In this document: positions 1 to 18,804 of the stretch, one piece after another
Numbering within the stretch: the first letter of the stretch is position 1
Layout: each line of letters begins with the position of its first letter
DNA from: an uncultured Thermoleophilia bacterium
GTDB taxonomy: Bacteria; Actinomycetota; Thermoleophilia; UBA2241
Length of the DNA: 64,000 nucleotides
Reading direction: 5' to 3'
Assembly (NCBI GenBank): GCA_963699725.1
Contig: CAVOVA010000001.1
Coordinates: 75,937 to 139,936 of the forward strand
Notes under the pieces: model-generated
Told to the model about the DNA's origin: nothing
Database searches by the model: none
What the model saw: the letters and a program-made list of their open reading frames with translations, nothing else
Translations under genes and position numbers: made by a program

Positions 1-1232
1 ATGGCTTCGACGACCTCCTTCGTGTTGGCCATGTGCACGATCTGCTGACCACCGACGCTGAACCACACCTTGATCGGTGCGTCGCCGGAGTTGATCGCCT
101 TGACCATGGTGTCCGGATTGCACGTCCGCGCGGCGCCCATCTTGAAGCGGTCGATGCCGATGATCTTGCTCTTCATCTCGTCGGTGAGCGGCAGCTCGAG
201 AAAGACGTCCTCGATGAGGCCGGTCTCGGGCAGCACCCAGCTGACCATGCTGCCCGGGGCCTCGATGTTGCCGGCCAGGCCCATGAGGCAGGTGATGGCG
301 CGCAGCGTGTGACCGCAGTTGGCCTGCCGCTCCAGGGAGCTCCCGACCTGGATGCACCCCGGCGTGTCGACGGCCCACATGCGCGCCGCCTCGGTCACGT
401 GCTCCCGGGGGATCCAGCAGATGTCGGAGACCTTCTCCGGCGTGAAGTCGCTGACGCGCTCACGGAGCTCGTCGAACCCGAAGGTCCAGTCGTTCACGAA
501 CTCCTTGTCCCAGAGCTCCTCCTCGATGATCACGTTCATCATGCCCATCGCGAGGGCGCAGTCGGTGCCGGGACGAGGCTGGATCCAGAGCGACGCGCGC
601 GAGGCGAAGGCGCTGGCGCGCGGGTCGATGATGATGAGGTTCTTGCAGTACTCCAGTGAGTTGAGGTACCAGACGGCCATCTCCGAGTCGGCGCTGCTGA
701 TCTCCAGCTGCTTGGCCCACATGATCTGCGTCTTGGGGAACTCGCCGCCCCAGCCGTGGTAGTCGCAGTAGAGGCGGCCGTAGCCCGTGACCAGTCCATA
801 GAGGCCCAGGCGCGGGCTGTGGCACACGTAGCCGGGGGTGATCACGTTCCCGGTGCCGATCGAGCGGGACAGGCGGTGGGTGTAGCGGTTGTAGCCGCGG
901 CCGGTGCCCTGCGAGATGGCGATGGTCTCCGGTCCGTAGTCCCGGATCGCGTCCTTCATCTTGGCTTCGATGGTGTCGAGCGCCTCGTCCCAGGAGATGC
1001 GCTTCCAGTTGCCCTCGCCTTTGGCGCCGACGCGCTTCATCGGGTACTTGACCCGGTACGGGTTGTCGATGTGCTGGATGCTCGAGAGGCCCTTGGAGCA
1101 CATCGTGCCGTTGGTCAGCGAGTCGGGGTTTCCCTGGATGTGGACGATCACCCCGTCCTCGACCGTCACGATCACACCGCAGCCGCCGTGACAGCTCTTG
1201 CACGTGGTGAGGATCTGCTTGCGGTCAGCCAT
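1..1232 (-). CDS. Molybdopterin oxidoreductase catalytic subunit (DMSO-reductase family; TtrA/PsrA-like). Partial: C-terminus runs off the window start.
   Basis: Reverse-strand translation from the ATG at 1232 gives MADRKQILTTCKSCHGGCGVIVTVEDGVIVHIQGNP...ISWDEALDTIEAK. This carries the CxxCxxxC 4Fe-4S motif and conserved Mo-bisPGD N-terminal blocks. No twin-arginine signal is present. The ORF is absent from the track because it has no stop inside the window. The Shine-Dalgarno sequence GAAAGGGAAG lies upstream. Confidence 0.85.
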   Translation of the reverse strand, partial: MADRKQILTTCKSCHGGCGVIVTVEDGVIVHIQGNPDSLTNGTMCSKGLSSIQHIDNPYRVKYPMKRVGAKGEGNWKRISWDEALDTIEAKMKDAIRDYGPETIAISQGTGRGYNRYTHRLSRSIGTGNVITPGYVCHSPRLGLYGLVTGYGRLYCDYHGWGGEFPKTQIMWAKQLEISSADSEMAVWYLNSLEYCKNLIIIDPRASAFASRASLWIQPRPGTDCALAMGMMNVIIEEELWDKEFVNDWTFGFDELRERVSDFTPEKVSDICWIPREHVTEAARMWAVDTPGCIQVGSSLERQANCGHTLRAITCLMGLAGNIEAPGSMVSWVLPETGLIEDVFLELPLTDEMKSKIIGIDRFKMGAARTCNPDTMVKAINSGDAPIKVWFSVGGQQIVHMANTKEVVEA

Positions 1233-1266
1233 TGCTTCCCTTTCGTGACGGGCCCGGTGGCCGCCC

Positions 1267-2238
1267 TCAGTTCACGTTGGGCAGGACCGATCGGTAGATG
1301 CCGACCTTGAGGACCGAGTACTTCAGCGAGAACGCGCCGATGGTGTGGCAGACGATGGCCGCGATGAGCAGCGGCCCGGCCTGCGCCTCCTCCAGAAACA
1401 TGGTCGCGAACGAGATCGTCAGGGGGGTGATGATGCCGAGGACCACGATGCCGACCCAGAACACCCAAGCCGTGCTGCCGCTGATCAGGTCGCGGGCGGC
1501 CAGCTCGGCGGCCGAGTGCTTGCGGTACGCCTGCACGAGGTAGCCGAGGATGAGCAGGGCGTTGACGACGAGCAGGACGCGGCTCCATGACTCCAGCGTG
1601 GAGATGGCGAGGTCGTCCGTCGTCAGGCTGATGCCCATCGTGAGCGCCAGGCCGTCGGCGACGCCCATGAGCACGAACACGATGGGCAGCAGGCCCGTGT
1701 TCCAGAACGGCACGCTCTTGCAGTAGCTCATCGCGAAGCCGCAGTACACGCCGGTGAGCAGGATGAAGACGCCGGCGACGATGCTGGCGGCCCAGCTGAT
1801 CACGGTGACGACGTCGGTGGCGGAGCCGGTCACGACGTCGTTGTAGAGCAGGTACCACGCGACCATCTGCACGAGGCCGGCCGTCACGAAGACGATGGAG
1901 AAGAACATGCCGCGCGCCAGCCACGAGGTCTTCCAGGCCTTGGTGAACGGTGGGATGGCGCGCCAGAAGCGCAGCGGTCTGCCGAGGTACACCAGGTGCA
2001 GCGGCAGCTTGAAGAGCACGATGAGCGCCCAGCCGACGACGGTGGCCCACCACGCGCCCTCGGTGAGCCCGCCCAGCCCCGCGAGCAGGCCGACGAGGTA
2101 AAGGCCCATGCCGAGCGCGGAGAAGACCTCGGCGAGCCACACGAGGACGCCCTTGCCGGAGATCCACTCCTTCTGGCGCATGGGCTTGACCATCCACTCG
2201 TGCGTGACGAGCCACTGACGGCGGGTCTGCGCCTTCAT
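1267..2238 (-). CDS. NrfD/PsrC-family polytopic membrane anchor subunit of a Mo-oxidoreductase.
   Basis: MKAQTRRQWLVTHEWMVKPMRQKEWISGKG... followed by eight or more hydrophobic helices. Start ATG at 2238 overlaps the upstream stop (ATGA). It is sandwiched between the FeS and catalytic subunits. Confidence 0.8.
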   Translation of the reverse strand: MKAQTRRQWLVTHEWMVKPMRQKEWISGKGVLVWLAEVFSALGMGLYLVGLLAGLGGLTEGAWWATVVGWALIVLFKLPLHLVYLGRPLRFWRAIPPFTKAWKTSWLARGMFFSIVFVTAGLVQMVAWYLLYNDVVTGSATDVVTVISWAASIVAGVFILLTGVYCGFAMSYCKSVPFWNTGLLPIVFVLMGVADGLALTMGISLTTDDLAISTLESWSRVLLVVNALLILGYLVQAYRKHSAAELAARDLISGSTAWVFWVGIVVLGIITPLTISFATMFLEEAQAGPLLIAAIVCHTIGAFSLKYSVLKVGIYRSVLPNVN

Positions 2239-3041
2239 GGCTCGACCTCCCCGGCCGGCGCGGGCTGAGCGCACTTGGGCTCGACGTGCAGGCGCTTCGC
2301 CGCGTCGCGGTCGATGGAGCTCAGATGCTGGATGTGGCTCCCGGTCTGCGCACGCCTCGGCGCGACGTTGGACGGTACGCCTCCCAGCCTGTAGTCGACG
2401 TAGTAGACCGAAGGATCGGTGCCGTACTCGGTGCGCAACTGAAAGCCACCGTGCTTGCGGATCAGCATCGAGACGTTGCTGTCCGGATCGTCGAGATCGC
2501 CGAAGGTGAGGGCGCGGGCCTGGCAGACGTTGACGCAAGCCGGAGAGGCGTCACGGTCGACGCCGGGCTGCAGGCCTCTGCTCATCCCGGCGTCGATGCG
2601 CTCGACGCAGAAGTTGCACTTCTCGGTCGTTCCCACCTGGTGCGGGAAGATCTTCTGGCCCTTGTTCTCGAAGCCGGTCTTCTCGTAGCCGGGGAAGTAG
2701 CCGGGGTTCTTGTCCTTCGAGAGGAAGGTGCGGTTCTGGTAGGGGCAGGCGATGACACAGTAGCGGCAGCCGATGCACTTGTCGGAGTCGATGACGACGA
2801 TGCCGTCCTCACGCTGGTGCGAAGCCTCGGTCGGGCAGACGTGCGTGCACGGCGCGTCGGCGCACTGGTTGCAGCGCACCGGGTAGGTGGACACGTCCAC
2901 CGCACCGCCCTCGTCCACCTCATAGGCGATGAGCTTGACCCAGGTGATGTGCAGGGGCAGGAAGTGCTCGACCCTGCAGGCGGCGACGCAGGCGTGACAG
3001 CGCATGCACTTCGCCAGATTGATGACCATTCCCCATCTCAT
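2235..3041 (-). CDS. 4Fe-4S ferredoxin-type electron-transfer subunit (DmsB/PsrB/TtrB-like).
   Basis: MRWGMVINLAKCMRCHACVAACRVEH...CNQCADAPC...CIGCRYCVIACPY...CNFCVERID. Four Cys clusters are present. No Tat signal. The start could instead be upstream at 3092. Confidence 0.85.
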   Translation of the reverse strand: MRWGMVINLAKCMRCHACVAACRVEHFLPLHITWVKLIAYEVDEGGAVDVSTYPVRCNQCADAPCTHVCPTEASHQREDGIVVIDSDKCIGCRYCVIACPYQNRTFLSKDKNPGYFPGYEKTGFENKGQKIFPHQVGTTEKCNFCVERIDAGMSRGLQPGVDRDASPACVNVCQARALTFGDLDDPDSNVSMLIRKHGGFQLRTEYGTDPSVYYVDYRLGGVPSNVAPRRAQTGSHIQHLSSIDRDAAKRLHVEPKCAQPAPAGEVEP

Positions 3042-3167
3042 GGGCGGACTCCTGTCGTAGGGACTGGGCCTCGTCTCATGACTCTCCAACACTGACGCGT
3101 GTCAGAGTCAAAGACAGGCCTTCCGGTCCGTGGAGTGCCGGGCCGGAGCCGGTTCCGGAGAGCCCCG

Positions 3168-3195
3168 GTGGGCCGGCCGCACAAGACCGGCCCAC
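3168..3195 (-). terminator. GC hairpin (GTGGGCCGG-N10-CCGGCCCAC) about 25 nt downstream, in the minus sense, of the beta1 stop.
   Basis: Perfect 9-bp inverted repeat seen in the sequence. No clear U-tract, which is common at high GC. Confidence 0.3.
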
Positions 3196-3219
3196 CGGAT
3201 CCGCTCCGCGAGCTGTCTG

Positions 3220-4038
3220 CTACTTCGCCAGGGCGATGTCGCCCAGGTTCACGTCCTTCGTCGTGTCGATGGAGTCGTAGGTCTTGTCGGCGAACCCGTC
3301 GGCAACGATCGAGAGGACGTACTCGCCCTCTTCCAGCCCGTGCAGCCAGAAGTCGCCGAAGGCGTCGGTGGTCGCCGAGACGGCGTCGCCGCCGCCGGCC
3401 GGGGTCGCCGTGCAGGCGGCGCCGATCACGACCTCCTTCTCAATGGGGTCGTAGACCGTACCGGCGATGAACTTCTTCGGGATGTTGAGGTAGTACACAC
3501 GAGGCTTGGTGCCGAGCTCCGGCTTCATGACCTCGGCCTGGGCGATGAGGTCGGCGAACTCGCTCTCCTCGCCGAACCGGATCGCCTCTGTGGGGCACGA
3601 GTCGACGCAGCGCGGGACGTCCCACTCACCGCTGTCGAGCAGGTGCGCGCAGCCGGTGCACTTCTGCGCCAGGTTGAGGTCGTCGTTGAAGTAGATCGAA
3701 CTGTACGGGCACGAGTCGACGCACGCCTTGCACCCCGTGCACGCGTCCGTGTCGATGATGACCAGGCCGTCGTCGCGTTTGTAGATGGCGCCCTCGATGG
3801 GGCACGACTCCATGCACGGGGCCTCGTCGCAGTGGTTGCAGAGATTGGGCACGTAGTGCATGCGCACGTGCGGCACCGAGCCGCGGATGTGCTCGTCCAG
3901 ACGCATCCAGAACTGGCCGCTGTCCGGCTGGGGCTTGGCGATCGGCGCCCAGTCGTTGCCGACGTGTTCGTCCTTGCAGGCGAACTGGCAGCCGAAGCAG
4001 CCGTTGCAGACGCCGACATCGATGATGAATGCCTTCAT
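3220..4038 (-). CDS. Pyrogallol-hydroxytransferase small-subunit-like FeS protein (BthL-like): 3x[4Fe-4S] domain plus C-terminal carboxypeptidase-regulatory-like beta-sandwich.
   Basis: MKAFIIDVGVCNGCFGCQFACKDEH...CNHCDEAPC...CTGCKACVDSCPY...CTGCAHLLD...YYLNIPKKFIAGTVYD...DAFGDFWLHGLEEGEYVLSIVADGF. This matches the Pelobacter BthL architecture. Shine-Dalgarno GAGGGAGGGAAC. ATG at 4038. Confidence 0.85.
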   Translation of the reverse strand: MKAFIIDVGVCNGCFGCQFACKDEHVGNDWAPIAKPQPDSGQFWMRLDEHIRGSVPHVRMHYVPNLCNHCDEAPCMESCPIEGAIYKRDDGLVIIDTDACTGCKACVDSCPYSSIYFNDDLNLAQKCTGCAHLLDSGEWDVPRCVDSCPTEAIRFGEESEFADLIAQAEVMKPELGTKPRVYYLNIPKKFIAGTVYDPIEKEVVIGAACTATPAGGGDAVSATTDAFGDFWLHGLEEGEYVLSIVADGFADKTYDSIDTTKDVNLGDIALAK

Positions 4039-4040
4039 GA

Positions 4041-6668
4041 TCAGTCGTTCCCTCCCTCGACCCAGCCGTTGAAGCGAAGGCCGGCCGCCTGGTCGTACTC
4101 TCTCTCGAACGCGTCGGGATAGTCCCGGCGCCAGGTCTCCCACTCCTCGGGCCTGATCTTCTGCACGTCCACGAGGAAGCCGCTCGTGGCCTGGCCACAG
4201 GCGTTCTTGGAGGTGAGGCCGTTGGGGGCGATGGTGTTGATGGCGCCGCCGCGGTCGACCTTGCCGGGGATGATCGGGTCGTGGCGCGCGCCGTGGTCGA
4301 TGTAGGCCACGCCCGGCATCAGACGCTCCCACACACAGGCGCCGCCGAGCACGATCCCGCGCTCGTTGAAGATCTTGACGATCTCGCCGTGCTCGATGCC
4401 GCGCTCGGCCGCGTCCTTCGGGTTGAGCCAGAGCGGCTCGTACCGGTAGTTGTCCGGCCCGAGCACCTTGCCGGTCGGGGTCTCGCGTGCCCAGGTGCAG
4501 TCGTCGCCCTGGGCGTGGGTGCGCCAGCGCGGGTGGTTGCTCATCAGCATCAGCGGGAACATGTCGGCGCGCTCGCTGGAGAGGCGCTCGTCGTGGGTGA
4601 TGCCGCGCTCGATCCACTTCGGGATCGGCGGCCGCTCCTGGTCGAGCGGGAAGTGCGTGGCGAGACGCTCGGAGTAGAACTCGAGCAGGCCCGACGGGGT
4701 CTTGAGCGGATGGTTCTCGGGATCCTCGTAGAACTGGCGCAGGCCCGGAGGATCCTGCTCCCAGTCTTCGGCGGTCGGGAAGACGCAGTACTTGTTCTCC
4801 TCGAACTCTTCCCAGGTCATGTAGCGCGAGATCTGCATGTTGTCGTAGATCTCGCGCTCGAGGTCCTTGACGGTCTTGCCCTTGGTGACCTGCTCGGTCA
4901 TGCCCAGCTTCTCGGCCACGGCAAGGACGATCTCGTAGTCGCTCTTGGACTCGCCGATCGGCTCGATGGCCTTTTCCTGCAGGGTGACGCTCTGGAACGG
5001 CGGCCCCTGCCGCACGTTCGTGACGACGTCCTCGACCTCCATCGTGGTGTTCGCCGGCAGGATGATGTCGGCGTAGAGGCAGTCGTTCTCGAGCCACGGG
5101 TGCTGGGCCACCATGAACTCGATGCTCGGGTCGCGATGGGCCTCGATGGTCCAGTTGCCGTGGTTCCAGCAGGTGATGCGGCAGGGCGTGTCGGTCCAGA
5201 TCATGTGGAGCCGGGTGCCGCCTTCGTCCGGCGGGTTCGGGAACTGATAGTCGATGAACTGGTCCTCCGTCTCGGCGTTCTGCGCGCCGGTGCCGGAGAA
5301 GTGGATCGTCTCGCTGTTGAGGATCGCCTCCTGGATGAGGGTCTTGGGGATGTTCTGCGTGCCCCAGGCGTCGACGCTGCTGCGCACGGGGGTACGCAGG
5401 CCTTCGCTGAGGGTCGGGTTGAAGTAGCGGAAGTGTTCGAGAGCCTCCGCCCGAGGCATGCCGAAGTACGACATCTGCCACTGGTGCACACCCGGGCCGC
5501 CGAGCCCCTGCATCCCGAGCAGGATGCACTCGAGGCGGCCGGGCTCGTGCGAGTACGGGCCGCGGATCATCGACCCGCCGAAGTAGTGCAGGATCGAGGT
5601 CGTCTGCCGCGCGAACTCGCGCGCGAGCGCCTTGATCGTCCACTCGGGGATGGTGGTCTTCTTCGAGGCCCACTCCGGGGTCTTGGGGACACCGTCGTCT
5701 TCACCGAGGACGTAGGCGGCGACCTCGTCCATGCCGACGGCATGGCTGGCGACGTACTCCTTGTCCCACGTGTCTTCCTTCAGCCACACGTAGATGATGG
5801 CCAGCTGCAGAGCGGCGTCGGTGTTGGGGAGGATCGGGATCCACTTGTCGGCGTGGACCGCGGCGCCGAAGTTGAGCTCGGGGCAGATGTAGACCTGCTT
5901 GATCCCCACCTCGGTGAAGAAGTAGGAGACGTTGGTCGCGTTCTGCCCTGTGAACCCCCACGGGGTGGTCTCGTCATCGCAGCCCCACTTGAGGACCATG
6001 CCGCAGTGCTCGACGACGTCCTTCAAGATGTTCAACTGGGGCGCCATCATGCCCTGGAAACCCTGTCCCCACACGTGCTTGGAGCCCCAGTACCAGCCCT
6101 CCCAGCTGTCCGGCTGGCGGACCTGCAGGGTGAAGCCGCCCATCTCGTCGAGGAGACGGGCGCTGTGGCCGTGCGGCGTGTGGATCGTCTTGCTCTCGCC
6201 GTGGCCGTCGCCCTGTACGAGGATGGCCGCCGGCCCGTATGCCTTGTGGATGCGCGCGATCTCGCCGGCGATGATGTCGGTGGCCTCGTCCCAGGTGATG
6301 CGGACGTACTTGCTCTTGCCGCGGTTCTGCGGATTGCGCTCCCCGTTGGGGTCCCAGTCCACACGCTTGAGCGGGTACTTGACGCGGTTCGGGGAGTAGG
6401 TGCGCTTCTTGTAGGCGGTCATGTAGGGAGCCGGGCGCGACCGCATGCCGGGCTCCAGGGTCGCGCCGTTGCGCTCGATCTTCCACGGGCGGAAGCTCTC
6501 ACCGTCGTACTTCCAGTCGAACTGGAACGGCCGGATCCGCAGGATCTTGCCGTCCTTCACGTCGACCATGACCTCACCGGTGCCGCCGAGGAGGCCGCCC
6601 TGCGACAAGGCCCTGATCACCGTCTTGTCCGGGGTCACGTCGACCTTCCTGCGTTCCTTGTCCGTCAT
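4041..6668 (-). CDS. Pyrogallol-phloroglucinol transhydroxylase large-subunit-like molybdoenzyme (AthL family, DMSO-reductase superfamily), paralog 1.
   Basis: 875 aa. ...VKDGKILRIRPFQFD...RVKYPLKRVDWDPNGERNPQNRGKSKYVRITWDEATD...NPDSWEGWYWG... No N-terminal Cys cluster, as in the transhydroxylase alpha subunit. Stop at 4041 lies 2 bp before the beta1 start. Confidence 0.85.
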   Translation of the reverse strand: MTDKERRKVDVTPDKTVIRALSQGGLLGGTGEVMVDVKDGKILRIRPFQFDWKYDGESFRPWKIERNGATLEPGMRSRPAPYMTAYKKRTYSPNRVKYPLKRVDWDPNGERNPQNRGKSKYVRITWDEATDIIAGEIARIHKAYGPAAILVQGDGHGESKTIHTPHGHSARLLDEMGGFTLQVRQPDSWEGWYWGSKHVWGQGFQGMMAPQLNILKDVVEHCGMVLKWGCDDETTPWGFTGQNATNVSYFFTEVGIKQVYICPELNFGAAVHADKWIPILPNTDAALQLAIIYVWLKEDTWDKEYVASHAVGMDEVAAYVLGEDDGVPKTPEWASKKTTIPEWTIKALAREFARQTTSILHYFGGSMIRGPYSHEPGRLECILLGMQGLGGPGVHQWQMSYFGMPRAEALEHFRYFNPTLSEGLRTPVRSSVDAWGTQNIPKTLIQEAILNSETIHFSGTGAQNAETEDQFIDYQFPNPPDEGGTRLHMIWTDTPCRITCWNHGNWTIEAHRDPSIEFMVAQHPWLENDCLYADIILPANTTMEVEDVVTNVRQGPPFQSVTLQEKAIEPIGESKSDYEIVLAVAEKLGMTEQVTKGKTVKDLEREIYDNMQISRYMTWEEFEENKYCVFPTAEDWEQDPPGLRQFYEDPENHPLKTPSGLLEFYSERLATHFPLDQERPPIPKWIERGITHDERLSSERADMFPLMLMSNHPRWRTHAQGDDCTWARETPTGKVLGPDNYRYEPLWLNPKDAAERGIEHGEIVKIFNERGIVLGGACVWERLMPGVAYIDHGARHDPIIPGKVDRGGAINTIAPNGLTSKNACGQATSGFLVDVQKIRPEEWETWRRDYPDAFEREYDQAAGLRFNGWVEGGND

Positions 6669-6738
6669 CTCGATCGCTGTCCTTTCGCCGTCGCTGGGGC
6701 CGGGATGGAGTCGTGGTGGGGCCTGCAGAGCTGAGGGG

Positions 6739-11167: not shown

Positions 11168-11457
11168 AGCAGCGTCGAAGGAGCCGGGCCCCGGCACCCT
11201 CCGCAGCGTGTGGGGCCGAGGGCGACGTGCCGGACTCGCGGAGCGTTCATCTGGACAAGAGCACGAACCTCGGCCAGGTCCTGCAGCCCGCGCCTGACGC
11301 AGCCGCGTCGAGAAGGCTCCTCGCAAGCGCTTCCCTCGCGAGCCGTTCGGGCGCCCGCCTTCTCCCGAGGGCGGGCGCCCATTCCCGCTTGCGCGTCCCG
11401 ATGGCCCGGCGCTTCCGCCGGCTCCCGCCGGGCCGATTGACCTGCCGCCGCACCCGA

Positions 11458-11498
11458 GATACGGTACCATTGTACGGATACAGCATGCCGTATGATGG
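11458..11498. promoter_or_regulatory. Candidate operator: GATACGG, TACGGATAC and CCGTATGATGG elements (11-mer at 11488-11498) upstream of IclR-2.
   Basis: Sequence motif shared with sites at 13396, 16138-16155 and 18805-18836. Confidence 0.4.
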
Positions 11499-11670
11499 AA
11501 CGCCAGCGAGTGATGGTGCAGCGTCCCGCGTGGTCGCCGAAGGTCACGGGGAAGCAGGAGACAGGCGCGCTACGGCGGCGCGCGATGGAGCGCACCAAGA
11601 CCACCCCGGCGGCTGGCTACCGTCTCGTGCAGGCGAAGCCCGCGCGGAGGGCGACGCACACCGAACGGCC

Positions 11671-12471: not shown

Positions 12472-12543
12472 GCCGCCTTGCCTCGGACCCGGTCCGGCGC
12501 ATCTGATGCCGTGCGGGAGCGGGGCCAGAGACGAGGAGGGCAC

Positions 12544-13305
12544 ATGAACGTGTTCGACATCGCCGGACGGTGCGCCGTGGTCGTCGGCGGCGGCGGGCTC
12601 GGCGGGGAGATCGCCCGGGGGCTGGCCGACCACGGCGCTCACGTCGCCGTCGCCGACGTCGATGAGGAGCGTGCCGCCGCATCCGTCGCCGCTATCGCAG
12701 GTCAAGGGGTCGACACGCTCGGCCTCGCCATCGACGTGACCGACGAGCGTTCGGTGCGCCGCGCCGTCACCGACGTGCTCGCGACCTTCCCCAGGATCGA
12801 CATCCTGGTCAACGCTGCCGGGGTGACTGTGCGCAAGCGGGCGGAGGATCTCCCGGTGGACGACTGGCGGCGCGTCCTGGAGATCAACGCCACCGGCACC
12901 TTCGTCTGCTGCCAGGCCTTCGGCGCGGAGATGGCGCGTGGCGGTGGGGGCGCGATCGTCAATCTGTCCTCCGTGCGAGGGCGGTTCGGTGCGACCTTCG
13001 GGCAAGCGGAGTACTCGGCGAGCAAGGGCGCGGTCGACTCCCTGACACGCTCGCTCGCCGTGCAGTGGGCCGAGTTCGGTATCCGTGTGAACGCGGTCGC
13101 GCCGACCTTCGTCGAGACCGACCTCACGCGGGCCGTGCTCGCCGACGACGCCTTCGCCGCCGGCCTGCGCGCAAGCATTCCCATGGGGCGCTGGGCCGAG
13201 GCTGCCGACGTGGTCGGTCCCGTGCTCTTCCTCGTCTCGCCGGCGGCGGCGTTCGTCACCGGCCAGATCCTCTACGTGGACGGCGGTCTCACGGCGCGCG
13301 TCTGA
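12544..13305 (+). CDS. Short-chain dehydrogenase/reductase (SDR). Candidate phloroglucinol reductase or 3-hydroxy-5-oxohexanoate dehydrogenase.
   Basis: MNVFDIAGRCAVVVGGGGLGGEIARGLA... (TGxxxGxG Rossmann motif) ...NAAG...SSVRG...YSASKGAV (YxxxK)...VNAVAPTFVET. Pathway role is inferred from context only. Confidence 0.85.
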   Translation: MNVFDIAGRCAVVVGGGGLGGEIARGLADHGAHVAVADVDEERAAASVAAIAGQGVDTLGLAIDVTDERSVRRAVTDVLATFPRIDILVNAAGVTVRKRAEDLPVDDWRRVLEINATGTFVCCQAFGAEMARGGGGAIVNLSSVRGRFGATFGQAEYSASKGAVDSLTRSLAVQWAEFGIRVNAVAPTFVETDLTRAVLADDAFAAGLRASIPMGRWAEAADVVGPVLFLVSPAAAFVTGQILYVDGGLTARV

Positions 13306-13395
13306 GCGTTCGCGGACCTGGCGGCAGGGCGCTCGGGGGATGCTTGACCTGCTCCCGGCCATCTGCAAGAGTGTTCGCATCATGGACTAGCAGTT

Positions 13396-13406
13396 CCGTA
13401 TCGTGG
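13396..13406 (+). promoter_or_regulatory. CCGTATCGTGG motif upstream of SDR-2.
   Basis: Exact 11-mer. Also present at 18805 (+) and 16145-16155 (-). Confidence 0.4.
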
Positions 13407-13556
13407 GCATTCCGCCCTTGAGCGGACGGCCGGATGGGACCCTGGTGACCGGGTCGCCGGGCTGTGGGTGAGCACGCTCGTCACAGCCGCATCGCGCGAA
13501 AGCCGCTCCCCGGTCCGTCGCCCGTGAACCGGACACGACGCGAGAGGAGACGTGCG

Positions 13557-14357
13557 ATGGCTGAGCGTGAGATCTGGAGCGTCGACAAGATCCGCGGCCT
13601 GTTCGATCTGACCGGCAAGGTCGCGATCGTGACCGGCGGGTCAGGGGCCTTCGGCCACGATGCCGCCAAGGCGATGGCCGCCTTCGGCGCGAGTGTGGTC
13701 GTCACGAGCCGGCGCGTCGAGAACGTCGAGTCGGCCGCGGCCGACATCGCCGGGGCGACCGGCGCGCGGGTGCTGCCCGTCCCGTGCGATGCGGTCGACC
13801 CGGAGAGCGTCGAGGCCATGGTGCAGAAGACCGTCGACGAGTTCGGCAAGGTCGACATCCTCGTCACTGCCGCCGGCCAGGCCAACCGCTTCGCCGCCGA
13901 GGAGTTTCCGCTCGACGAGTGGCAGAAGGTCATGGACTCGCTCGTCAAGGGTACCTATGTCGTCTGCCAGGCTGCCGGCAAACGCATGATCGCCCAGGGC
14001 GGCGGCAAGATCATCACCGTCGGGTCCGTGCGCGGCGAGCTCGGGCATCCCGGAGGGTATTCCGCGTACGGCACCGCCAAGGGCGCGGTACACCTGCTCA
14101 CCAAGCAGCTCGCCGCTGAGTGGGCCAAGTACCATATCAACGTGAACTCCATCGCCCCCTGCATCTTCTGGACCCCGCTCACACAGCAGGTCCTCGACGA
14201 CCCCGAGCTCTACAAGATCTTCATGCAGCGCATCCCGTGGGGCCGCGCCGCGGATCCTCAGGACTTCATGGGCGCGACGGTGTACCTCGCCTCGGCGGCG
14301 TCCGACTTCGTCACCGGGGACATCCTGATGGTCGACGGCGGCAGCACCGCCGCCTGA
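13557..14357 (+). CDS. Short-chain dehydrogenase/reductase (SDR) no. 2. Candidate for the second reductive/oxidative step of the phloroglucinol pathway.
   Basis: MAEREIWSVDKIRGLFDLTGKVAIVTGGSGAFGHDAAKA...YSAYGTAKGAV...VNSIAPCIFWTP. Shine-Dalgarno GAGAGGAGA. Confidence 0.85.
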   Translation: MAEREIWSVDKIRGLFDLTGKVAIVTGGSGAFGHDAAKAMAAFGASVVVTSRRVENVESAAADIAGATGARVLPVPCDAVDPESVEAMVQKTVDEFGKVDILVTAAGQANRFAAEEFPLDEWQKVMDSLVKGTYVVCQAAGKRMIAQGGGKIITVGSVRGELGHPGGYSAYGTAKGAVHLLTKQLAAEWAKYHINVNSIAPCIFWTPLTQQVLDDPELYKIFMQRIPWGRAADPQDFMGATVYLASAASDFVTGDILMVDGGSTAA

Positions 14358-14380
14358 CTCTCCGGCTGAAGGGGGCCGCA

Positions 14381-15331
14381 GTGAGCACCACGGGCGCTGA
14401 GTGCGTCGCCGTCGTCGGGGGCGGCATGATGGGCGTCGGCGTGGCCCAGGTCTTCGCCGCCGCCGGACATGAGGTCGCGCTCCAGGATGTGTCTCAGGAG
14501 GCCCTCGAGCGCGCCCCGGGCACCATCTCGGCGAACCTGGCCTTCCTCGCAGAGCACGGTCTCTTCGCGGCCGACGGCGTCGACGACGCCGTCGGCCGCG
14601 TGCGCACCACCGCGGAACTCACGGAGGCGGCCGCCGGCGCCGACGTCGTCGTCGAGTGCGTGTTCGAGGATCTCGCCCTCAAGCAGGAGGTCTTCGAGCG
14701 TCTCGACGCCGTGTGCCCGGTCGAGACGATCCTGTGCACCAATACATCGGTGATGAGCATCACCGAGATCGGCGCCCGCGCCGTGAACAGGCAGCGGGTC
14801 GTCGGCACGCACTTCTGGAACCCGCCGTACCTGATCCCGCTGGTCGAAGTCGTGCGCACCGAGCACGTCGATCCAGCGGTGGTCGAACGCACCATGGACC
14901 TCCTGCGACGCGTGGGCAAACACCCGATCGACTGCAAGAAGGACGTTCCCGGCTTCGTCGCCAATCGCCTGCAGCATGCCCTCTGGCGGGAGGCCATCTC
15001 GATCGTCGAGCGAGGCATCGCCGACGCCGAGACGGTGGACGAGAGCATTCGCTACGGTCCCGGTCTGCGCCTGCCGATCCTGGCGCCGATGGAGAACGCG
15101 GACATGGTGGGTCTCGACCTCACGCTGGCGATCCACGACTACATCCTGCCCCACCTCGAGGCTTCGGGCGAGCCGTCGCCGCTCTTGCGCGCGAAGGTCG
15201 AGGCCGGGGATCTCGGATTCAAGAGCGGCAAGGGGTTCGCCGAGTGGACGCCCGAGTCGGCTGAGGCGTCGCGGAGGCGTTTGGCGGCCTACCTGGTGCA
15301 CGTGCTGGGCGATCCCGAGCGGGGGTTCTGA
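14381..15331 (+). CDS. 3-hydroxyacyl-CoA (3-hydroxybutyryl-CoA) dehydrogenase, NAD-binding.
   Basis: VSTTGAECVAVVGGGMMGVGVAQVFAAAGHEVALQD...NTSVMSITEI...GTHFWNPPYLIPLVEVV...GFVANRL. GTG start with Shine-Dalgarno GAAGGGGG. Confidence 0.8.
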   Translation: MSTTGAECVAVVGGGMMGVGVAQVFAAAGHEVALQDVSQEALERAPGTISANLAFLAEHGLFAADGVDDAVGRVRTTAELTEAAAGADVVVECVFEDLALKQEVFERLDAVCPVETILCTNTSVMSITEIGARAVNRQRVVGTHFWNPPYLIPLVEVVRTEHVDPAVVERTMDLLRRVGKHPIDCKKDVPGFVANRLQHALWREAISIVERGIADAETVDESIRYGPGLRLPILAPMENADMVGLDLTLAIHDYILPHLEASGEPSPLLRAKVEAGDLGFKSGKGFAEWTPESAEASRRRLAAYLVHVLGDPERGF

Positions 15332-15353
15332 GACGGCCGAGCGGCGCGACGGA

Positions 15354-16082
15354 GTGCAGGTCCTCTCGCGCGCGGCGCTGCTGCTGCGGGCGCTCTCCGT
15401 CACGCCTGAGGGCCTGACTCCAATCGCGCTCGCCGACCAGGTCGGCCTGCCGCGCTCCACCTGCTACCGCATCGTCGGCGCGCTCTGCCAGGAGGGGCTC
15501 ATGCGCCTCTCGCCCTCGGGCAAGCTGCACATCGGCGCCGGTCTCATCAGCCTCGCCGCCGCCGGCCGGCGCGATCTGCGGCACGAGTCGGCTCCGCTCC
15601 TCGAGCGCCTTTCACTCGAGTTGCACGAGACCGTGGAGCTCGTCGTGCTCGACGGCGACGAGGCGCTGTTCACCGACCAGTACGTCCCGCAACGCTCGCT
15701 GCGCGTGGTGGCGGAGGTGGGCGACCGCTTTCCGCTCTACTGCACCGCGTGCGGCAAAGCGCTGCTGGCCGAGCTGCCGGCCCCGGAGGCGGCGCGTCTG
15801 GTACCGCCGCGTCTCGAGCCGCTCACCCGCCACACCATCGTCGACCGGGACGCGCTCTTCCGGGAGGTCGAGGAGGCGCGGACCACCGGCGTGGCCTACG
15901 ACCACCAGGAACACACGCTCGGCGTGTCCGCGGTGGGCGCCGCCCTCAAGGATGCCGGCGGCGCCATGGCCGCCATCACCGTGGCCATGCCGGCCGCTCG
16001 CCTCGACGGCCACGAGGAGCGCATCTCCGCCGCGCTCCTCCGTACTCGCGACGACATCCAGCAGGCCATCAACGCGAGCTGA
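15354..16082 (+). CDS. IclR-family transcriptional regulator (IclR-3).
   Basis: VQVLSRAALLLRALSVTPEGLTPIALADQVGLPRSTCYRIVGALCQEGLM...HETVELVVLDG...VGDRFPLY... Paralog of IclR-2 and IclR-4. The start codon (GTG at 15354) is uncertain. Confidence 0.7.
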   Translation: MQVLSRAALLLRALSVTPEGLTPIALADQVGLPRSTCYRIVGALCQEGLMRLSPSGKLHIGAGLISLAAAGRRDLRHESAPLLERLSLELHETVELVVLDGDEALFTDQYVPQRSLRVVAEVGDRFPLYCTACGKALLAELPAPEAARLVPPRLEPLTRHTIVDRDALFREVEEARTTGVAYDHQEHTLGVSAVGAALKDAGGAMAAITVAMPAARLDGHEERISAALLRTRDDIQQAINAS

Positions 16083-16137
16083 CCGGCGGCCGCCTCCAAC
16101 GCCGCATCCGTATTGACAGCGGATTCGGGACGTCTTA

Positions 16138-16155
16138 GCGTATCCACGATACGGC
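16138..16155. promoter_or_regulatory. Palindromic operator candidate CGTATC-CAC-GATACG; its minus strand reads CCGTATCGTGGATACG. Upstream of the cyclase gene.
   Basis: Perfect inverted repeat that contains the shared 11-mer. Flanking CCGTAT (16108) and ATGCGGATAG (16170) half-sites. Confidence 0.45.
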
Positions 16156-16281
16156 ACTTTGTGTCCGAGATGCGGATAGTCGAGCATCGGGAGCACGGCC
16201 GCCACATCATCGTCGGCGGGCAGTCCGGGTGCGCGAGAGCCCGTCTGCCGTGACTGTAACGAGACCGAGGAGAGTAGGCCC

Positions 16282-17241
16282 ATGGGCAAGAAGGTATTCG
16301 TTGACCTCACACACCCGTTCAGCGCGGAGATCCCCCGGTGGCCGTACTTCGTGAAGCCGGTCATCGACTCCATGCACACCCTGGCGAAGGGCGGTGTCCT
16401 CACGCAACGCATCGACTGCGTGCAGCACACCGGCACCCACGCCGACGCTCCTCGTCACGTCATGGAGCGCGAGTTCAACGGCAAACGTGCCCGCTACACG
16501 CACGAGATGCCGGTGGACGCCTACACCGGCGACGCCGTCTGCCTCGACATCCAGATCGAGAAGTGGGGCCTCATCCTGCCCGCGCATATCGAGGACGCCT
16601 GCGCGCGCGCCGGCATCAAGCCTGAGGAGCTCAAGGGCATGGTCGTGTGCCTCAACACCGGCATGCACCGCAAGTTCGACGACTCCATGGACTACTACCA
16701 GTACTCGTGCGGCACCGGCGTCGAGGCCGGCAGGTGGTTCGTCGAAAAGCAGGTCAAGGTCGTGGCCATGGACATGCAGGCCCTCGACCATCCGCTCCAC
16801 ACCGCGATGGGCAAGAACGGCCCGCCGCAGATGAACCTCCCGGGCGCCTCCGGCCGTCCGATCACCGAGGAGTACATCGAGAAGTACGGCATCGAGGCCT
16901 ACGCCGAGTTCGAGAAGGCCGTCTACATCGAGGTGCACGGCCAGGACGCCTACGACGCCAAGTTCGGCGACCTCGAGGCGATCGGCTGCGAGGGGACCTG
17001 GGAGCCCTGCCACAAGCAGATGCTCGGCCACGGCATCGTCGGCGTCGAGAACCTCGGCGGCGACCTGGACAAGGTCAGGGGCAAGCGGTTCCGCTTCTTC
17101 TGCTTCCCGATCCGCTGGTACATGGGCGACGGCTCCATGGTGCGCTGCGCCGCCGAGATCGACGAGGACGACCTGAACGACGTGCCGGATCGCACGTACA
17201 CTTACGCCGGTACCGGCTACGGTCCCGGAGCCGGCTACTGA
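16282..17241 (+). CDS. Cyclase-family (kynurenine-formamidase-like, PF04199) metal-dependent hydrolase. Candidate dihydrophloroglucinol cyclohydrolase.
   Basis: MGKKVFVDLTHPFSAEIPRWPY...IDCVQHTGTHADAPRH (HxGTHxDxPxH metal motif)... The function is assigned by family plus context. Confidence 0.75.
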   Translation: MGKKVFVDLTHPFSAEIPRWPYFVKPVIDSMHTLAKGGVLTQRIDCVQHTGTHADAPRHVMEREFNGKRARYTHEMPVDAYTGDAVCLDIQIEKWGLILPAHIEDACARAGIKPEELKGMVVCLNTGMHRKFDDSMDYYQYSCGTGVEAGRWFVEKQVKVVAMDMQALDHPLHTAMGKNGPPQMNLPGASGRPITEEYIEKYGIEAYAEFEKAVYIEVHGQDAYDAKFGDLEAIGCEGTWEPCHKQMLGHGIVGVENLGGDLDKVRGKRFRFFCFPIRWYMGDGSMVRCAAEIDEDDLNDVPDRTYTYAGTGYGPGAGY

Positions 17242-17371
17242 TCCGCCTGTCGCCCCCGGGGGCCGACGGCGTGGCGCCCGCCGGCGTTCGCCACGGGACG
17301 GCACGGTGTGGCGCTTGACGGCGTTCGTAGTCATTCGGAGAAGCCGAACACGGCTCGAGAAGGAGTGAGGC

Positions 17372-17722
17372 ATGGAGGTCACGAGGTACGACGAGGCCCC
17401 GAGCTACGAGGCCCCCGGACATTTCGACGTGTACGGCCTGCGCCTGCAGGGGTTCGAGGTCAGCAAAACCCGCAACTTCTGGATGAGCATCTCCCACTTC
17501 CTGCCCGGGGGCGGCTGCGAGTACGTCGCCACCCCGATCGAGAAGGTCTACTTCGTGCTCGAGGGTGAAGTCACCGTCAAGACGGAGGAGGGCGAGGTCA
17601 TCCTCAAGAAGTGGGACTCCATCTACCTGGCGCCGGACGAGGCCCGCTCGATCCTGAACCACACCAACTCGCCGGCGACGATGCTCGTCGCAATCCCCTA
17701 TCCGGAGCCCCGCGAGTTCTGA
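17372..17722 (+). CDS. Cupin-domain protein.
   Basis: 116 aa: ...NFWMSISHFLPGGGCEYVATPIEKVYFVLEGEVTV... Two-motif cupin pattern. Confidence 0.6.
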   Translation: MEVTRYDEAPSYEAPGHFDVYGLRLQGFEVSKTRNFWMSISHFLPGGGCEYVATPIEKVYFVLEGEVTVKTEEGEVILKKWDSIYLAPDEARSILNHTNSPATMLVAIPYPEPREF

Positions 17723-17902
17723 GCCGGGACTGCGGGAGCGTGTCCCGGGTTCTCCGGCGGGGACGACGCGCGCACGCGGACGGTACGGGGGCGGCGACTG
17801 AGCAGCCGACCGTCCCCGCCCGTCCGGGCACGGACCTCCGCCCTCGCCTGTGCACCCGCGCGCCAGACGATTCCCGACCCCACGACCTCCGAGGAGGCCA
17901 TC

Positions 17903-18733
17903 ATGCCCAGACCCATCATCACCGCGGCGCTCACGGGTCCCGTGGCGACCAAGGCCGACAATGCCGGCATCCCCGGGAACGTGGCGGAGATAGCCGCCGA
18001 CGCCAGGGCCTGTCACGAGGCCGGAGCTGCAGTCATCCACATCCACCTCCGCGACGATCAGGGCAACATGACGGCCGATCTCGACGTCGCACGACGTACG
18101 GTCGAGGCCGTCCGCGAGGTCTGTCCGGGCATCACGCAGCTCTCCACCGGGGGGCTGCAGTTCACCTACGAAGAGCGTATGCGCCTGGTCGAGGCGAAGC
18201 CCGCGATGGCCACACTCAACCCTTGCACGATGACCTTCGCCACCGCGGAGTTCCGCAACCCGCCCAAGCAGATGATGGAGCTGGCGGCCCGGATGATGGA
18301 GCTCGGCGTCAAGCCCGAGGTCGAGATCTACGACACCGGCCACCTCGAGATGATGCTCTACCTGCTACACAAGGAACTCCTCGTCCGGCCGCTGCAGGTC
18401 TCGTTCGTCATGGGCGTCCGGGGGGGCATGAAGGGCGACCCGGGACTGCTCGCGTATCTCGTGCGCGAGTTGCCCGAGGGAACCAGCTGGCAGGTCATCG
18501 GCGTGGCCAAGGCCAACCTCCCGATGACGGCGGTCGGTCTGGCCATGGGAGGGAACGCGCGCACGGGCATGGAGGACACCATCACGCTCGACAAGGGTGT
18601 GCCCGCGGACTCGAACCGGCAGCTCGTCGAGCGCCTCGTCGGCATCGCCCAGTCGATGCAACTGCAGCCCGCGTCCGTCGCCGACGTCGTGGAGCGGCTC
18701 CAGCTCCATCCGGAGCTCGTCAACGGAGCCTGA
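17903..18733 (+). CDS. Beta-keto-acid cleavage enzyme (BKACE / 3-keto-5-aminohexanoate cleavage family, DUF849). Candidate triacetate acetoacetate-lyase.
   Basis: MPRPIITAALTGPVATKADNAGIPGNVAEIAADARACHEAGAAVIHIHLRDDQGNMT...QLSTGG...EERM. Canonical BKACE N-terminal blocks. Confidence 0.8.
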   Translation: MPRPIITAALTGPVATKADNAGIPGNVAEIAADARACHEAGAAVIHIHLRDDQGNMTADLDVARRTVEAVREVCPGITQLSTGGLQFTYEERMRLVEAKPAMATLNPCTMTFATAEFRNPPKQMMELAARMMELGVKPEVEIYDTGHLEMMLYLLHKELLVRPLQVSFVMGVRGGMKGDPGLLAYLVRELPEGTSWQVIGVAKANLPMTAVGLAMGGNARTGMEDTITLDKGVPADSNRQLVERLVGIAQSMQLQPASVADVVERLQLHPELVNGA

Positions 18734-18804
18734 GGGGCGCGCGACTCGACTGTACCGCGAGGCGGAACCGTTGCTTGACAGTCTGGAGCCCGGCTATATG
18801 ATGC

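Follow-up and report, generated by a model that had tools for sequence, protein, structure and literature searches.

The 64,000-nucleotide stretch analysed here (hereafter the window; contig CAVOVA010000001.1 of an uncultured Thermoleophilia bacterium, assembly GCA_963699725.1) carries, over about positions 1 to 24.8 kb, a gene island of about 25 kb that is real and conserved, and that very probably constitutes a catabolic unit leading from polyhydroxybenzenes to acetoacetate on a known pathway. Viewed as a whole, we consider it probable that the island serves the regulated use of plant-derived polyhydroxybenzenes via phloroglucinol in an uncultured Thermoleophilia lineage. The pathway itself is ordinary and widespread; the two transhydroxylase-like molybdenum (Mo) enzymes, a small cupin and the final cleavage enzyme are variants. 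A first-pass annotation of the same DNA had already placed transhydroxylase-like Mo enzymes together with the families of reductive phloroglucinol breakdown, and that combination stands, the pathway being the one described by Zhou et al. 2023. The limits of 1-18800 that it drew were too narrow, as an importer and a further regulator extend the island by about 6 kb beyond 18.8 kb, and its flat 70% G+C gives way to values of 0.655-0.70 within the island (63-72% across the window). Because mechanical lists of open reading frames are artefact-rich at such G+C, genes were called by third-position GC (GC3) frame bias and frame plots, with starts chosen by ribosome-binding sites, and the products were scanned against Pfam and against NCBIfam models with their own cut-offs.

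In the published pathway, the enzymes are a phloroglucinol reductase (PGR, a short-chain dehydrogenase/reductase, SDR), a dihydrophloroglucinol cyclohydrolase (DPGC, cyclase family), the dehydrogenase TfD and a triacetate acetoacetate-lyase (TAL, BKACE family) (Zhou et al., mBio 2023, PMC10470551). DPGC is encoded at 16282-17241 (+; Pfam Cyclase PF04199, 113 bits). The protein contains the metal motif HxGTHxDxPxH (QHTGTHADAPRH) and reads EIPRW20PY22F, and thus carries the Trp20 and Tyr22 that replace the substrate residues of isatin hydrolase in the Clostridium scatologenes enzyme, CsDPGC (PMC10470551). The comparison with CsDPGC was made via tryptic peptides, pocket residues and named Firmicutes homologues: three CsDPGC peptides from published proteomics match the window cyclase at 13/15, 17/20 and 16/18 positions, and the proteins of Clostridium intestinale, Alkalibaculum sporogenes, Tissierella pigra and Proteocatella sphenisci are 83-87% identical to it. 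UniRef50_E3PU66 groups CsDPGC with four of these Firmicutes species, the link coming otherwise from the authors' cblaster output (PMC10470551). The window cyclase is thus a clear DPGC orthologue, as firmly as a sequence allows one to say. Across Actinomycetota, Desulfobacterota, Firmicutes, Bacteroidales and one Methanomicrobiaceae-labelled contig, DPGC is 83-90% identical.

The neighbouring dehydrogenase is equally recognizable. The first-pass annotation had rightly named SDRs, a cyclase and a BKACE among the pathway families, and had given the oxidation of 3-hydroxy-5-oxohexanoate to a second SDR, listing a 3-hydroxyacyl-CoA dehydrogenase (3HCDH) merely as a neighbour together with a cupin. 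Since the characterised TfD belongs to the 3HCDH family and is not an SDR (PMC10470551), the gene at 14381-15331 (+; Pfam 3HCDH_N and 3HCDH) fills this role instead; the 3HCDH and the cupin are both present, and the gene that is extra is one of the SDRs. Lys56 and Asn221, which contact CoA in 3-hydroxybutyryl-CoA dehydrogenase, are missing from characterised TfD (PMC10470551). The window protein has the catalytic Ser, His and Asn in the motifs NTS, GTHFWNP and GFVANR, and it agrees with the C. scatologenes TfD peptides IVGTHFWNPPYLIPLVEVVK and VNKDVPGFVANR in 18/20 and 10/12 residues. Its DPGC-linked counterparts from Firmicutes, Desulfobacterota and Bacteroidales share 54-68% identity with it, and the best solved match is 4om8, a free-acid dehydrogenase. 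Judged by these features, it is a clear TfD candidate for (S)-3-hydroxy-5-oxohexanoate.

A cyclase scan of species-representative genomes identified 541 relatives, of which the best 80 loci were examined (cited below by L numbers), 50 of them with full 10-kb flanks. The best cyclase matches (97-99%) were soil metagenome-assembled genomes (MAGs) labelled Thermoleophilia or Actinomycetota. An SDR, a 3HCDH and a BKACE stood by the cyclase in 36/50 full loci, the small cupin was present in 33/50, across several phyla, and at least one transhydroxylase-like alpha subunit was encoded in 28/50, with two or three in 13/50; this co-occurrence argues that the clustering is not due to chance. The best 80 loci include dozens of Thermoleophilia and Actinomycetota MAGs, and the published carriers of the pathway comprise Firmicutes, Proteobacteria, sulfate reducers, Archaeoglobus and Mycobacterium, in data sets that also include actinobacterial MAGs (PMC10470551), so that the actinobacterial host is not the unusual one it had been taken for. 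In a peat study, 57 MAGs from 13 phyla were reported to express PGR and pgthAB.

The outer steps of the pathway are assigned mainly by position. Beside TfD and DPGC, in a slot conserved in every clade and phylum examined, lies SDR2 (13557-14357, +), recognized by Pfam, by its neighbourhood and by the NADP-type motif 'VTSRR' (TSRR). This conserved neighbourhood, together with compatible active-site features, makes SDR2 the candidate NADPH-dependent PGR. Its match to the solved chain 5g4k, which we take to be a Clostridium phloroglucinol reductase and whose entry is named only 'oxidoreductase, SDR family', amounts to 155 bits and 37% identity; the DPGC-linked SDRs of Firmicutes are 54-62% identical to 5g4k. 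The extra SDR, SDR1 (12544-13305, +; Pfam), is of NAD type, with an Asp closing beta2 ('VAVADVDEE'), is 30% identical to 5g4k and falls in a separate clade of the SDR tree; among the loci examined it is confined to the Thermoleophilia version of the cluster (L001-L013, L040, L045).

At the other end of the route, the candidate TAL is a BKACE encoded at 17903-18733 (+; Pfam BKACE, 288 bits) in which the Zn ligands are kept (His46, His48 and Glu230 equivalents). The C. scatologenes lyase, CsTAL, is a BKACE with Trp16 in place of Glu14 of Kce, the BKACE of lysine fermentation (PMC10470551). Four subtypes occupy the DPGC-adjacent BKACE slot, and the residue at this position is always non-acidic (W, M, I or V). 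Firmicutes have TGAW (the CsTAL type, as the peptide TIITVAPTGAWPK confirms), other Actinomycetota TGAM, Desulfobacterota a 307-aa TGAIH form, and the window TGPV. The loss of the acidic residue at position 14 fits a substrate without an amino group, and the identification as a triacetate lyase draws mainly on this compatible active site and on the conserved neighbourhood. No NCBIfam model was passed by any pathway protein. A model named '3,5-dioxohexanoate:acetyl-CoA acetone transferase' (NF053538) was closest only for the 307-aa Desulfobacterota BKACE (391 bits, cut-off 430) and fitted neither the clostridial nor the window type.

Kce also bears on the possibility that the BKACE and the cyclase stem from unrelated metabolism (lysine fermentation and kynurenine formamidase) and stand together by coincidence, the outcome that the first-pass annotation had named as fatal to its proposal. 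The best curated match of the BKACE is indeed Kce, as is its best solved match (2y7d, 187 bits), and cyclase homologues are labelled 'kynurenine formamidase' in their source databases. Against this, the Kce score of 259.8 bits lies below the cut-off of 382 and Glu14 is replaced by Val, the cyclase reaches 37.6 bits with the arylformamidase model TIGR03035 (KynB; cut-off 223) and has the DPGC residues Trp20 and Tyr22, the gene set is kept together in the 36 loci mentioned above, and Pfam scans of the window revealed no other lysine-fermentation or tryptophan-degradation genes nearby. A coincidental assembly of this kind is hardly credible, and that scenario did not materialize.

Several properties of the outer enzymes do count against a plain phloroglucinol pathway. 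SDR2 lies outside the Firmicutes clade that groups with 5g4k; the BKACE has Val14, not the CsTAL-type Trp; it shares only 29-41% identity with the BKACEs that fill this slot in other clades, and it scores above none of the NCBIfam BKACE cut-offs. The downstream genes might then act on another cyclic 1,3-dione or beta-keto acid, such as dihydroresorcinol/5-oxohexanoate or an acyl-phloroglucinol derivative, with SDR2, the window-type BKACE, SDR1 and the cupin forming a variant pathway. Such a reading would account for a reductase and a lyase that are not orthologous to characterised CsPGR and CsTAL, for the additional NAD-type SDR1, and for the fact that the window-type BKACE and the cupin travel as a pair (in L044 and L047 the cupin is 95%, the BKACE 85-86% and SDR2 57-58% identical to those of the window). 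It is nevertheless improbable, given a DPGC that is 83-87% identical to the named Firmicutes homologues and has the pocket residues of CsDPGC, and a TfD that is similarly conserved: two conserved middle steps fix the intermediates on either side of them.

The small cupin (17372-17722, +; 116 aa, Pfam Cupin_2) is a conserved companion of this core. It adjoins the reductase or the cyclase in Thermoleophilia, other Actinomycetota, Firmicutes, Desulfobacterota and a Treponema MAG, with 39-53% identity outside close relatives. An alignment of 46 sequences contains 19 invariant columns (Y12, H17, G27, F36, S41, F43, L44, P45, G47, G48, E57, K58, Y60, G65, L78, S83, E90, R92 and N96), and the canonical His ligands of metal cupins are absent, with no His between residues 43 and 96. 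An AlphaFold (AF2) model (pLDDT 86) has TM1459 as its nearest solved fold, and the fold search returned only generic small cupins (TM1459, DddK) that gave no functional lead. In C. scatologenes, CSCA_1081 (Cupin_2, 113 aa) directly precedes CsPGR (CSCA_1082) and DPGC (CSCA_1083) and appears in the mass-spectrometry table of bands prominent in phloroglucinol-grown cells; the main text of that study does not mention a cupin (PMC10470551), and our literature searches found no role for one in phloroglucinol metabolism. The only NCBIfam hit of the window cupin is NF050094, a 113-aa Mycobacterium tuberculosis model (111 bits, cut-off 175) whose name, 'beta-D-galactosidase', is odd for a small cupin. 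M. tuberculosis is among the listed carriers of a phloroglucinol-type cluster (PMC10470551 data), and the M. tuberculosis protein may be the counterpart of this cluster member.

Upstream of the core, two alpha/beta pairs of transhydroxylase type, predicted in the first pass, are confirmed by their Pfam domains. They are transcribed divergently: alpha1 (4041-6668, -) is followed by beta1 (3220-4038, -), and alpha2 (7801-10329, +) by beta2 (10334-11167, +). Both alphas combine AhtL-like_1st, Molybdopterin and Molydop_binding domains, and their N-termini contain neither an Fe-S motif nor an export signal or twin-arginine motif. Both betas (Pfam Fer4_11 and CarboxypepD_reg) are small subunits with Fe-S clusters and a C-terminal beta-barrel; beta2 aligns with BthL of the Pelobacter acidigallici transhydroxylase (4v4c_B) over residues 4-274, C-terminal domain included, with 202 bits, and homologues of beta1 (53-60%) follow alpha1-type genes in other loci. 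Against AthL (4v4c_A), alpha2 scores 883 bits over its full length, with 50% identity in the multiple alignment, and alpha1 442 bits with 37% identity.

To place the two enzymes, 44 alphas from related loci were aligned together with the two window alphas and with AthL, whose sequence was taken from the 4v4c alignment, and clades were described by the residues at AthL positions 144/153/174/175/176/354/404/560. Clade A (HRDSWWYY; 57-83% to AthL) is common in Actinomycetota MAGs, and clade B (HWDSWFYY; 54-56%) occurs in most close relatives of the window and in Alkalibaculum. Window alpha2 belongs to clade C (HKDSWEYY), and window alpha1 to clade D, which has H(P/C)DSWG followed by a variable residue and a nine-residue deletion that removes Tyr560 (34-38%). 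Neither falls into the AthL clade as defined by Arg153, Trp354 and Tyr560, and at least three transhydroxylase-family clades besides the Pelobacter type have no assigned substrate. Alpha2-type proteins alone account for more than 120 clusters (70-94% identity), whose sources include Desulfobacter, Desulfococcaceae, Acidobacteria and Actinobacteria; none of these clusters carries a functional name. Alpha2 retains His144, Asp174, Ser175, Trp176, Tyr404 and Tyr560; His144, Asp174 and Tyr404 are reportedly catalytic in AthL (Messerschmidt et al. 2004). Alpha1 keeps His144 and the Asp-Ser-Trp Mo-ligand motif (DSW aligned with Ser175), with Pro153 and Gly354.

Six gene contexts of alpha2-type genes were sampled. 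The divergent alpha1-beta1/alpha2-beta2 layout recurs in four of them, namely Desulfobacter sp. CP054837 (alpha1 66% and alpha2 79% identical) and three MAG contigs, of which one is L083 and the other two have the same IclR regulator between the pairs. In L081 and L084, alpha2-beta2 is co-operonic with a cupin, an SDR and short cyclases, which are followed by genes for an ADP-forming acyl-CoA synthetase, a hydratase and a thiolase; in L086 it is co-operonic with a cyclase, a cupin, a 3HCDH and a BKACE. Alpha2-type enzymes are thus tied to ring-reduction and ring-hydrolysis genes, and their substrate is probably not that of the pyrogallol enzyme.

The short cyclases form adjacent PF04199 pairs of their own (260-267 aa, about 29-36% identical to DPGC; L081 3169-4810, L082 1241-2855 and L084 14728-16344). 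At the positions of Trp20 and Tyr22, one member of a pair has the Trp and a Ser, and the other a Tyr instead of Trp. They accompany the alpha2-type module and genes for an ADP-forming acyl-CoA synthetase, an enoyl-CoA hydratase and a thiolase, and the sets resemble a hitherto undescribed variant in which ring hydrolysis and breakdown depend on CoA. Certain Actinomycetota MAGs encode three transhydroxylase-family alphas within 10 kb of the cyclase (L016, L054, L055, L056, L061), L016 having one AthL-clade gene and two alpha1-clade genes, and in others (L039, L041, L046, L059, L067, L073) the alphas are 79-83% identical to the enzyme of P. acidigallici, a member of the Desulfobacterota. Alpha identities of 79-83% and DPGC identities of 83-90% across phyla indicate extensive recent horizontal transfer.

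Further observations on the Mo enzymes and on the window speak against the proposal. Alpha2 has Lys153 and Glu354; in alpha1, Tyr404 is replaced by Leu, the FPGYAEGG motif is gone and the Tyr560 loop is deleted, and alpha1 may be a water-dependent hydroxylase like resorcinol hydroxylase instead of a transhydroxylase. The neighbours of the alpha2 module in L081, L082 and L084 are short paired cyclases and CoA-dependent genes, not the canonical core, and the product of the module need not be phloroglucinol. The MAG JAAYJE01 has a clade-A alpha (79% to AthL) by its phloroglucinol core (L073) and the alpha1/alpha2 module on another contig (L085), and this coexistence argues against pyrogallol as the alpha2 substrate. 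Pfam scans of the window detected no genes for a gallate decarboxylase, tannase, thiolase, acetoacetate CoA-transferase or kinase. A simple gallate/pyrogallol-to-acetyl-CoA route of the kind proposed in the first pass is not supported: the alphas cannot be treated as AthL counterparts, a pyrogallol substrate is not established, since neither is an AthL orthologue and true AthL-clade enzymes can coexist with the alpha2 type, and neither the entry of gallate nor the completion of the route to acetyl-CoA is encoded here.

The same observations lend themselves to a different account, in which the Mo pairs are water-dependent hydroxylases of the type of resorcinol hydroxylase (RhLS) or 3,5-dihydroxybenzoate hydroxylase (DbhLS) that make hydroxyhydroquinone-type products within a general phenolics island. 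Electrons would leave by way of the Fe-S subunits, and the acceptor might be the neighbouring NrfD-anchored complex. Alpha1, with its remodelled His-His motif and without Tyr404 and the Tyr560 loop, would suit such a role, both alphas lie outside the AthL clade, and a membrane-anchored Fe-S/Mo complex is encoded directly downstream of beta1 in the window and in L083; resorcinol hydroxylase moreover belongs to the same Ser-ligated RhL/PgtL group (PMC10100899). Set against these points are an alpha2 that keeps every checkable AthL-clade-conserved residue except 153 and 354, a window in which neither a hydroxyhydroquinone dehydrogenase nor downstream oxidative-pathway genes were seen, alpha2-type genes that are co-operonic with reductase, cyclase and cupin genes in four other genomes, and a hairpin that parts beta1 from the membrane-anchored unit. 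On balance we regard this account as unlikely, and prefer the conversion of polyhydroxybenzenes to phloroglucinol by the Mo pairs.

The membrane-bound Mo-oxidoreductase of the first-pass annotation proved to be a three-gene unit at 3-3041 (-), cut by the window edge. In order of transcription it comprises a four-cluster-type [4Fe-4S] ferredoxin subunit (2235-3041, -; Pfam Fer4_11 and related families; the nearest NCBIfam models are DsrO-, ArrB- and QrcC-like, all below cut-off), an integral membrane, quinone-interacting anchor of NrfD/PsrC type (1267-2238, -; Pfam NrfD, 60 bits; kept in L083) and the N-terminal 423 aa of a catalytic subunit of the Mo/W-bis(molybdopterin guanine dinucleotide) type (3-1271, -; Pfam Molybdop_Fe4S4 and Molybdopterin), with overlapping stops and starts. 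The catalytic subunit has an N-terminal [4Fe-4S] motif, CxxCxxxC, and its N-terminus (MEGGHRARHEREAMADRKQILTTCKSC) has no RRxFLK-type twin-arginine motif. Over the 423 aa compared, acetylene hydratase (2e7z) scores 159 bits and the next match, the polysulfide/thiosulfate reductase PsrA, 129. To delimit catechol dehydroxylases, Maini Rekdal et al. (eLife 2020, PMC7028382) asked that acetylene hydratase be the nearest characterised relative; in Eggerthella lenta these enzymes are encoded with a 4Fe-4S protein and a membrane anchor, and their catalytic subunit carries a twin-arginine signal. The third Mo enzyme thus resembles acetylene hydratase and catechol dehydroxylases in its predicted sequence, and it may plausibly adjust the hydroxylation of a related phenol, though support for this is weak. 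Among all loci examined the unit is common only to the window and its close relative L083, whose orthologue of the catalytic subunit is 88% identical and 731 aa long; in the 80 cyclase-anchored loci only cross-hits to transhydroxylase subunits were obtained, and L086 has a 34%-identical Fe4S4-type Mo gene near its alpha2 module.

Comparison with close relatives points to an island assembled from separable parts. Collinearity of the window with L003 covers 11651-24815 and continues further, at 92.5% nucleotide identity. It breaks at about 11651, upstream of which identity drops to 67-68%, because L003 has a clade-A pair there; over the core, L004 reaches 96% identity. Window positions 1-11167 are matched collinearly by L083 at 85-90% nucleotide identity, the FeS-NrfD-Mo unit included, and the arrangement is therefore not an assembly artefact. 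Between beta2 and the following regulator gene L083 has an additional insertion with major facilitator superfamily (MFS) and BON genes and a third alpha, and its core is only 79% identical. A core shared with L003 and L004 and a Mo region shared with L083 imply that the Mo cassette upstream of IclR-2 was exchanged independently of the core. No similarity to the third alpha of L083 was found in the 500-bp gap between beta2 and IclR-2 (11168-11670), which could otherwise have been its relic, and a long open frame upstream of IclR-2 was rejected as a gene, as it looks non-coding.

Drawing these lines together, the island would work as follows. An ABC importer consisting of a binding protein, two ATPases and two permeases would take in the substrate, and the two cytoplasmic transhydroxylase-family Mo enzymes, encoded in a divergently transcribed, IclR-controlled two-pair module, would rearrange or add ring hydroxyls to yield phloroglucinol. 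The transhydroxylation itself would most likely be performed by alpha2-beta2, in which the catalytic residues of the Pelobacter enzyme are retained; alpha1-beta1, with its remodelled pocket, would probably act on a different hydroxybenzene, or supply or recycle a tetrahydroxybenzene co-substrate. SDR2 would then use NADPH to reduce phloroglucinol to dihydrophloroglucinol by the oxygen-independent published route, DPGC would open the ring to 3-hydroxy-5-oxohexanoate, TfD would oxidise this to triacetate, and the BKACE would cleave triacetate with acetyl-CoA to acetoacetate and acetoacetyl-CoA. The membrane-anchored Mo enzyme may remove or adjust a hydroxyl on a related phenol via the quinone pool, a weakly supported step.

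A bolder extension, which we put forward tentatively and hold to be possible but doubtful, is that the divergent module, kept from Thermoleophilia to Desulfobacter, is a two-enzyme hydroxyl-shuffling relay of novel specificities and that the His-less cupin is a fifth pathway component. The relay might convert hydroxyhydroquinone or another polyhydroxybenzene to phloroglucinol, or one enzyme might make the tetrahydroxybenzene co-substrate of the other. To our knowledge, the in-vivo source of this co-substrate has never been explained.

Four IclR genes were reported by the first-pass annotation within 1-18800; four do exist, three of them inside these limits (IclR-1, 6739-7575, -; IclR-2, 11671-12471, +; IclR-3, 15354-16082, +) and the fourth at 23925-24815 (+). 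They suggest separate induction of the modules. IclR-1 (Pfam HTH_IclR and IclR_C) is either co-transcribed with alpha1-beta1 or transcribed ahead of it, and points away from alpha2; an orthologue is found in the same position in L082, L083 and L085. The intergenic region between IclR-1 and alpha2 contains operator-like repeats (7624-7681), with ACGATATCAGCGTT present twice, 22 bp apart, and once more in inverted orientation; the orthologous region of L082 has a related repeat, ACGATATC, with the same 22-bp spacing. The ACGATATCAGCGTT repeats are likely to be an operator. IclR-2 (Pfam) marks the beginning of the core, which in close relatives starts just upstream of it, and IclR-3 (Pfam) is likewise kept in relatives.

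A perfect hairpin with a 12-bp stem, found by repeat search, lies just 3' of the beta1 stop (3165-3198, -); it has no U-tract and is likely the terminator separating alpha1-beta1 from the FeS-NrfD-Mo unit. Between the BKACE and the binding-protein gene, a consensus scan gave an 11/12 match to a sigma-70-like promoter, TTGACA-16-TATGAT (18775-18802, +), which is suggestive only, as it is the sole hit in 20 kb and about 1.3 would be expected by chance. Searches in the other intergenic regions revealed no palindromes shared between promoters. Further local elements include a 25-nt direct repeat, ACGGCGTGGCGCCCGCCGGCGTTCG, between the cyclase and cupin genes (17266-17327), with a second copy 84% identical and a first copy that overlaps a 13-nt inverted repeat; a GC-rich inverted repeat at 18957-19007 (24-nt arms, 79% complementary, 3-nt loop) that stops 17 nt short of the solute-binding protein's start codon and could be a terminator of the BKACE transcript or a translational control element; and a nested palindrome, GACTCTGACACGCGTCAGTGTTGGAGAGTC, just upstream of the Fe-S gene start (3060-3110, -), which could be an operator for the FeS-NrfD-Mo unit.

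Downstream of the BKACE, the ABC importer (19024-23862) and IclR-4 are kept in all close relatives. The importer is made up of a solute-binding protein with a twin-arginine signal (19024-20394, +; Pfam Peripla_BP_6), two ATPases (20471-21202 and about 21199-21897, +; Pfam ABC_tran) and two permeases (21902-22774 and 22771-23862, +; Pfam BPD_transp_2), and IclR-4 (Pfam; 72-94% identical in relatives) is the final gene of the island. Beyond 24.9 kb the genes are housekeeping in character: 5-formyltetrahydrofolate (5-FTHF) cyclo-ligase, a GGDEF protein, arginyl-tRNA synthetase, peptidases, FeoB, trehalose synthesis, formate-tetrahydrofolate (THF) ligase/FolD and GatAB. A scan of the remaining window, 25-64 kb, found no further aromatic-degradation genes. 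Past the minus-strand 5-FTHF cyclo-ligase gene, a diguanylate cyclase (25575-26840, +) has a V4R domain (PF02830) and a DUF2507-like region before its GGDEF domain. V4R domains are candidate binding modules for small ligands of hydrophobic or aromatic character, and the protein could provide a phenolic-responsive c-di-GMP signal or be unrelated to the island. A row of genes at 43347-49371 (+) encodes formate-THF ligase, an FTCD_C cyclodeaminase-like protein and FolD; a short gap separates these from the gene for a fused NuoF-like flavoprotein with 2Fe-2S thioredoxin-like, Nuo51 FMN and 4Fe-4S domains. In its predicted domains the row resembles the Wood-Ljungdahl methyl branch together with a diaphorase of hydrogenase/formate-dehydrogenase type, and hints at an anaerobic or facultative lifestyle of this Thermoleophilia lineage. 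An N6/N4 DNA methylase gene (39661-40839, -) is embedded among glycosyltransferase genes, with no restriction partner identified nearby.

Phloroglucinol is the anoxic funnel for the mineralisation of flavonoids and tannins, and these genes therefore bear on carbon storage in peat and waterlogged soils. The window shows that abundant uncultured soil Thermoleophilia carry the pathway. The feeding step is modular, since near-identical cores (92-96% DNA identity) carry different transhydroxylase-family cassettes, and with at least three other alpha clades the annotation of every such gene as 'pgthAB' probably over-assigns pyrogallol conversion. The island also exposes gaps in a pathway regarded as solved, concerning the role of the cupin, which BKACE subtypes cleave triacetate, and the activity of alpha1 and alpha2. 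Its interest lies in four uncharacterised variants: the alpha1 and alpha2 clades with their conserved pairing, a swappable Mo cassette, a non-orthologous lyase and an overlooked cupin.

Set beside known systems, each part of the island combines a shared architecture with distinct differences. Like Kce of lysine fermentation, the window BKACE is a TIM-barrel BKACE with conserved Zn ligands; unlike it, it has Val in place of the Glu14 that binds the 5-amino group of the substrate, and it scores below the Kce cut-off. The third Mo enzyme shares with the catechol dehydroxylases of Eggerthella and Gordonibacter a Mo subunit nearest to acetylene hydratase and, as in the E. lenta type, a co-encoded 4Fe-4S protein and membrane anchor, and differs in lacking the twin-arginine signal and in its gene order of FeS-anchor-Mo. 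With AthL/BthL of P. acidigallici (4v4c) the Mo pairs have in common the two-subunit architecture, an alpha without Fe-S motif or export signal, the Asp-Ser-Trp Mo-ligand motif in both alphas, a beta with Fe-S clusters and a C-terminal beta-barrel and, for alpha2, His144, Tyr404 and Tyr560. They differ in that alpha2 is 50% identical, has Lys153/Glu354 and belongs to a large clade of its own, and in that alpha1 is 37% identical and has neither Tyr404 nor the Tyr560 loop; proteins of the AthL clade (57-83%) are encoded in other MAGs, not in the window. In work attributed to Brune, Schnell and Schink in 1992, Pelobacter massiliensis reportedly converts hydroxyhydroquinone to phloroglucinol by sequential transhydroxylations, and we know of no genes or identified enzymes for this sequence. 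It offers a precedent, in logic and not in sequence, for several transhydroxylase regiospecificities feeding one phloroglucinol pathway.

The C. scatologenes cluster is the closest counterpart of the island core. Both unite the four enzyme families in one cluster, with DPGC and TfD as clear orthologues, and both have a small cupin by the reductase, as CSCA_1081 stands next to CsPGR. In the window, by contrast, the reductase is a distant SDR (37% to 5g4k) and the lyase another BKACE subtype, with Val14 and not Trp16; an extra NAD-type SDR and the upstream Mo enzymes are added, thiolase, CoA-transferase and kinase genes are missing from the set, regulation is by IclR proteins, and an ABC importer takes the place of a major facilitator.

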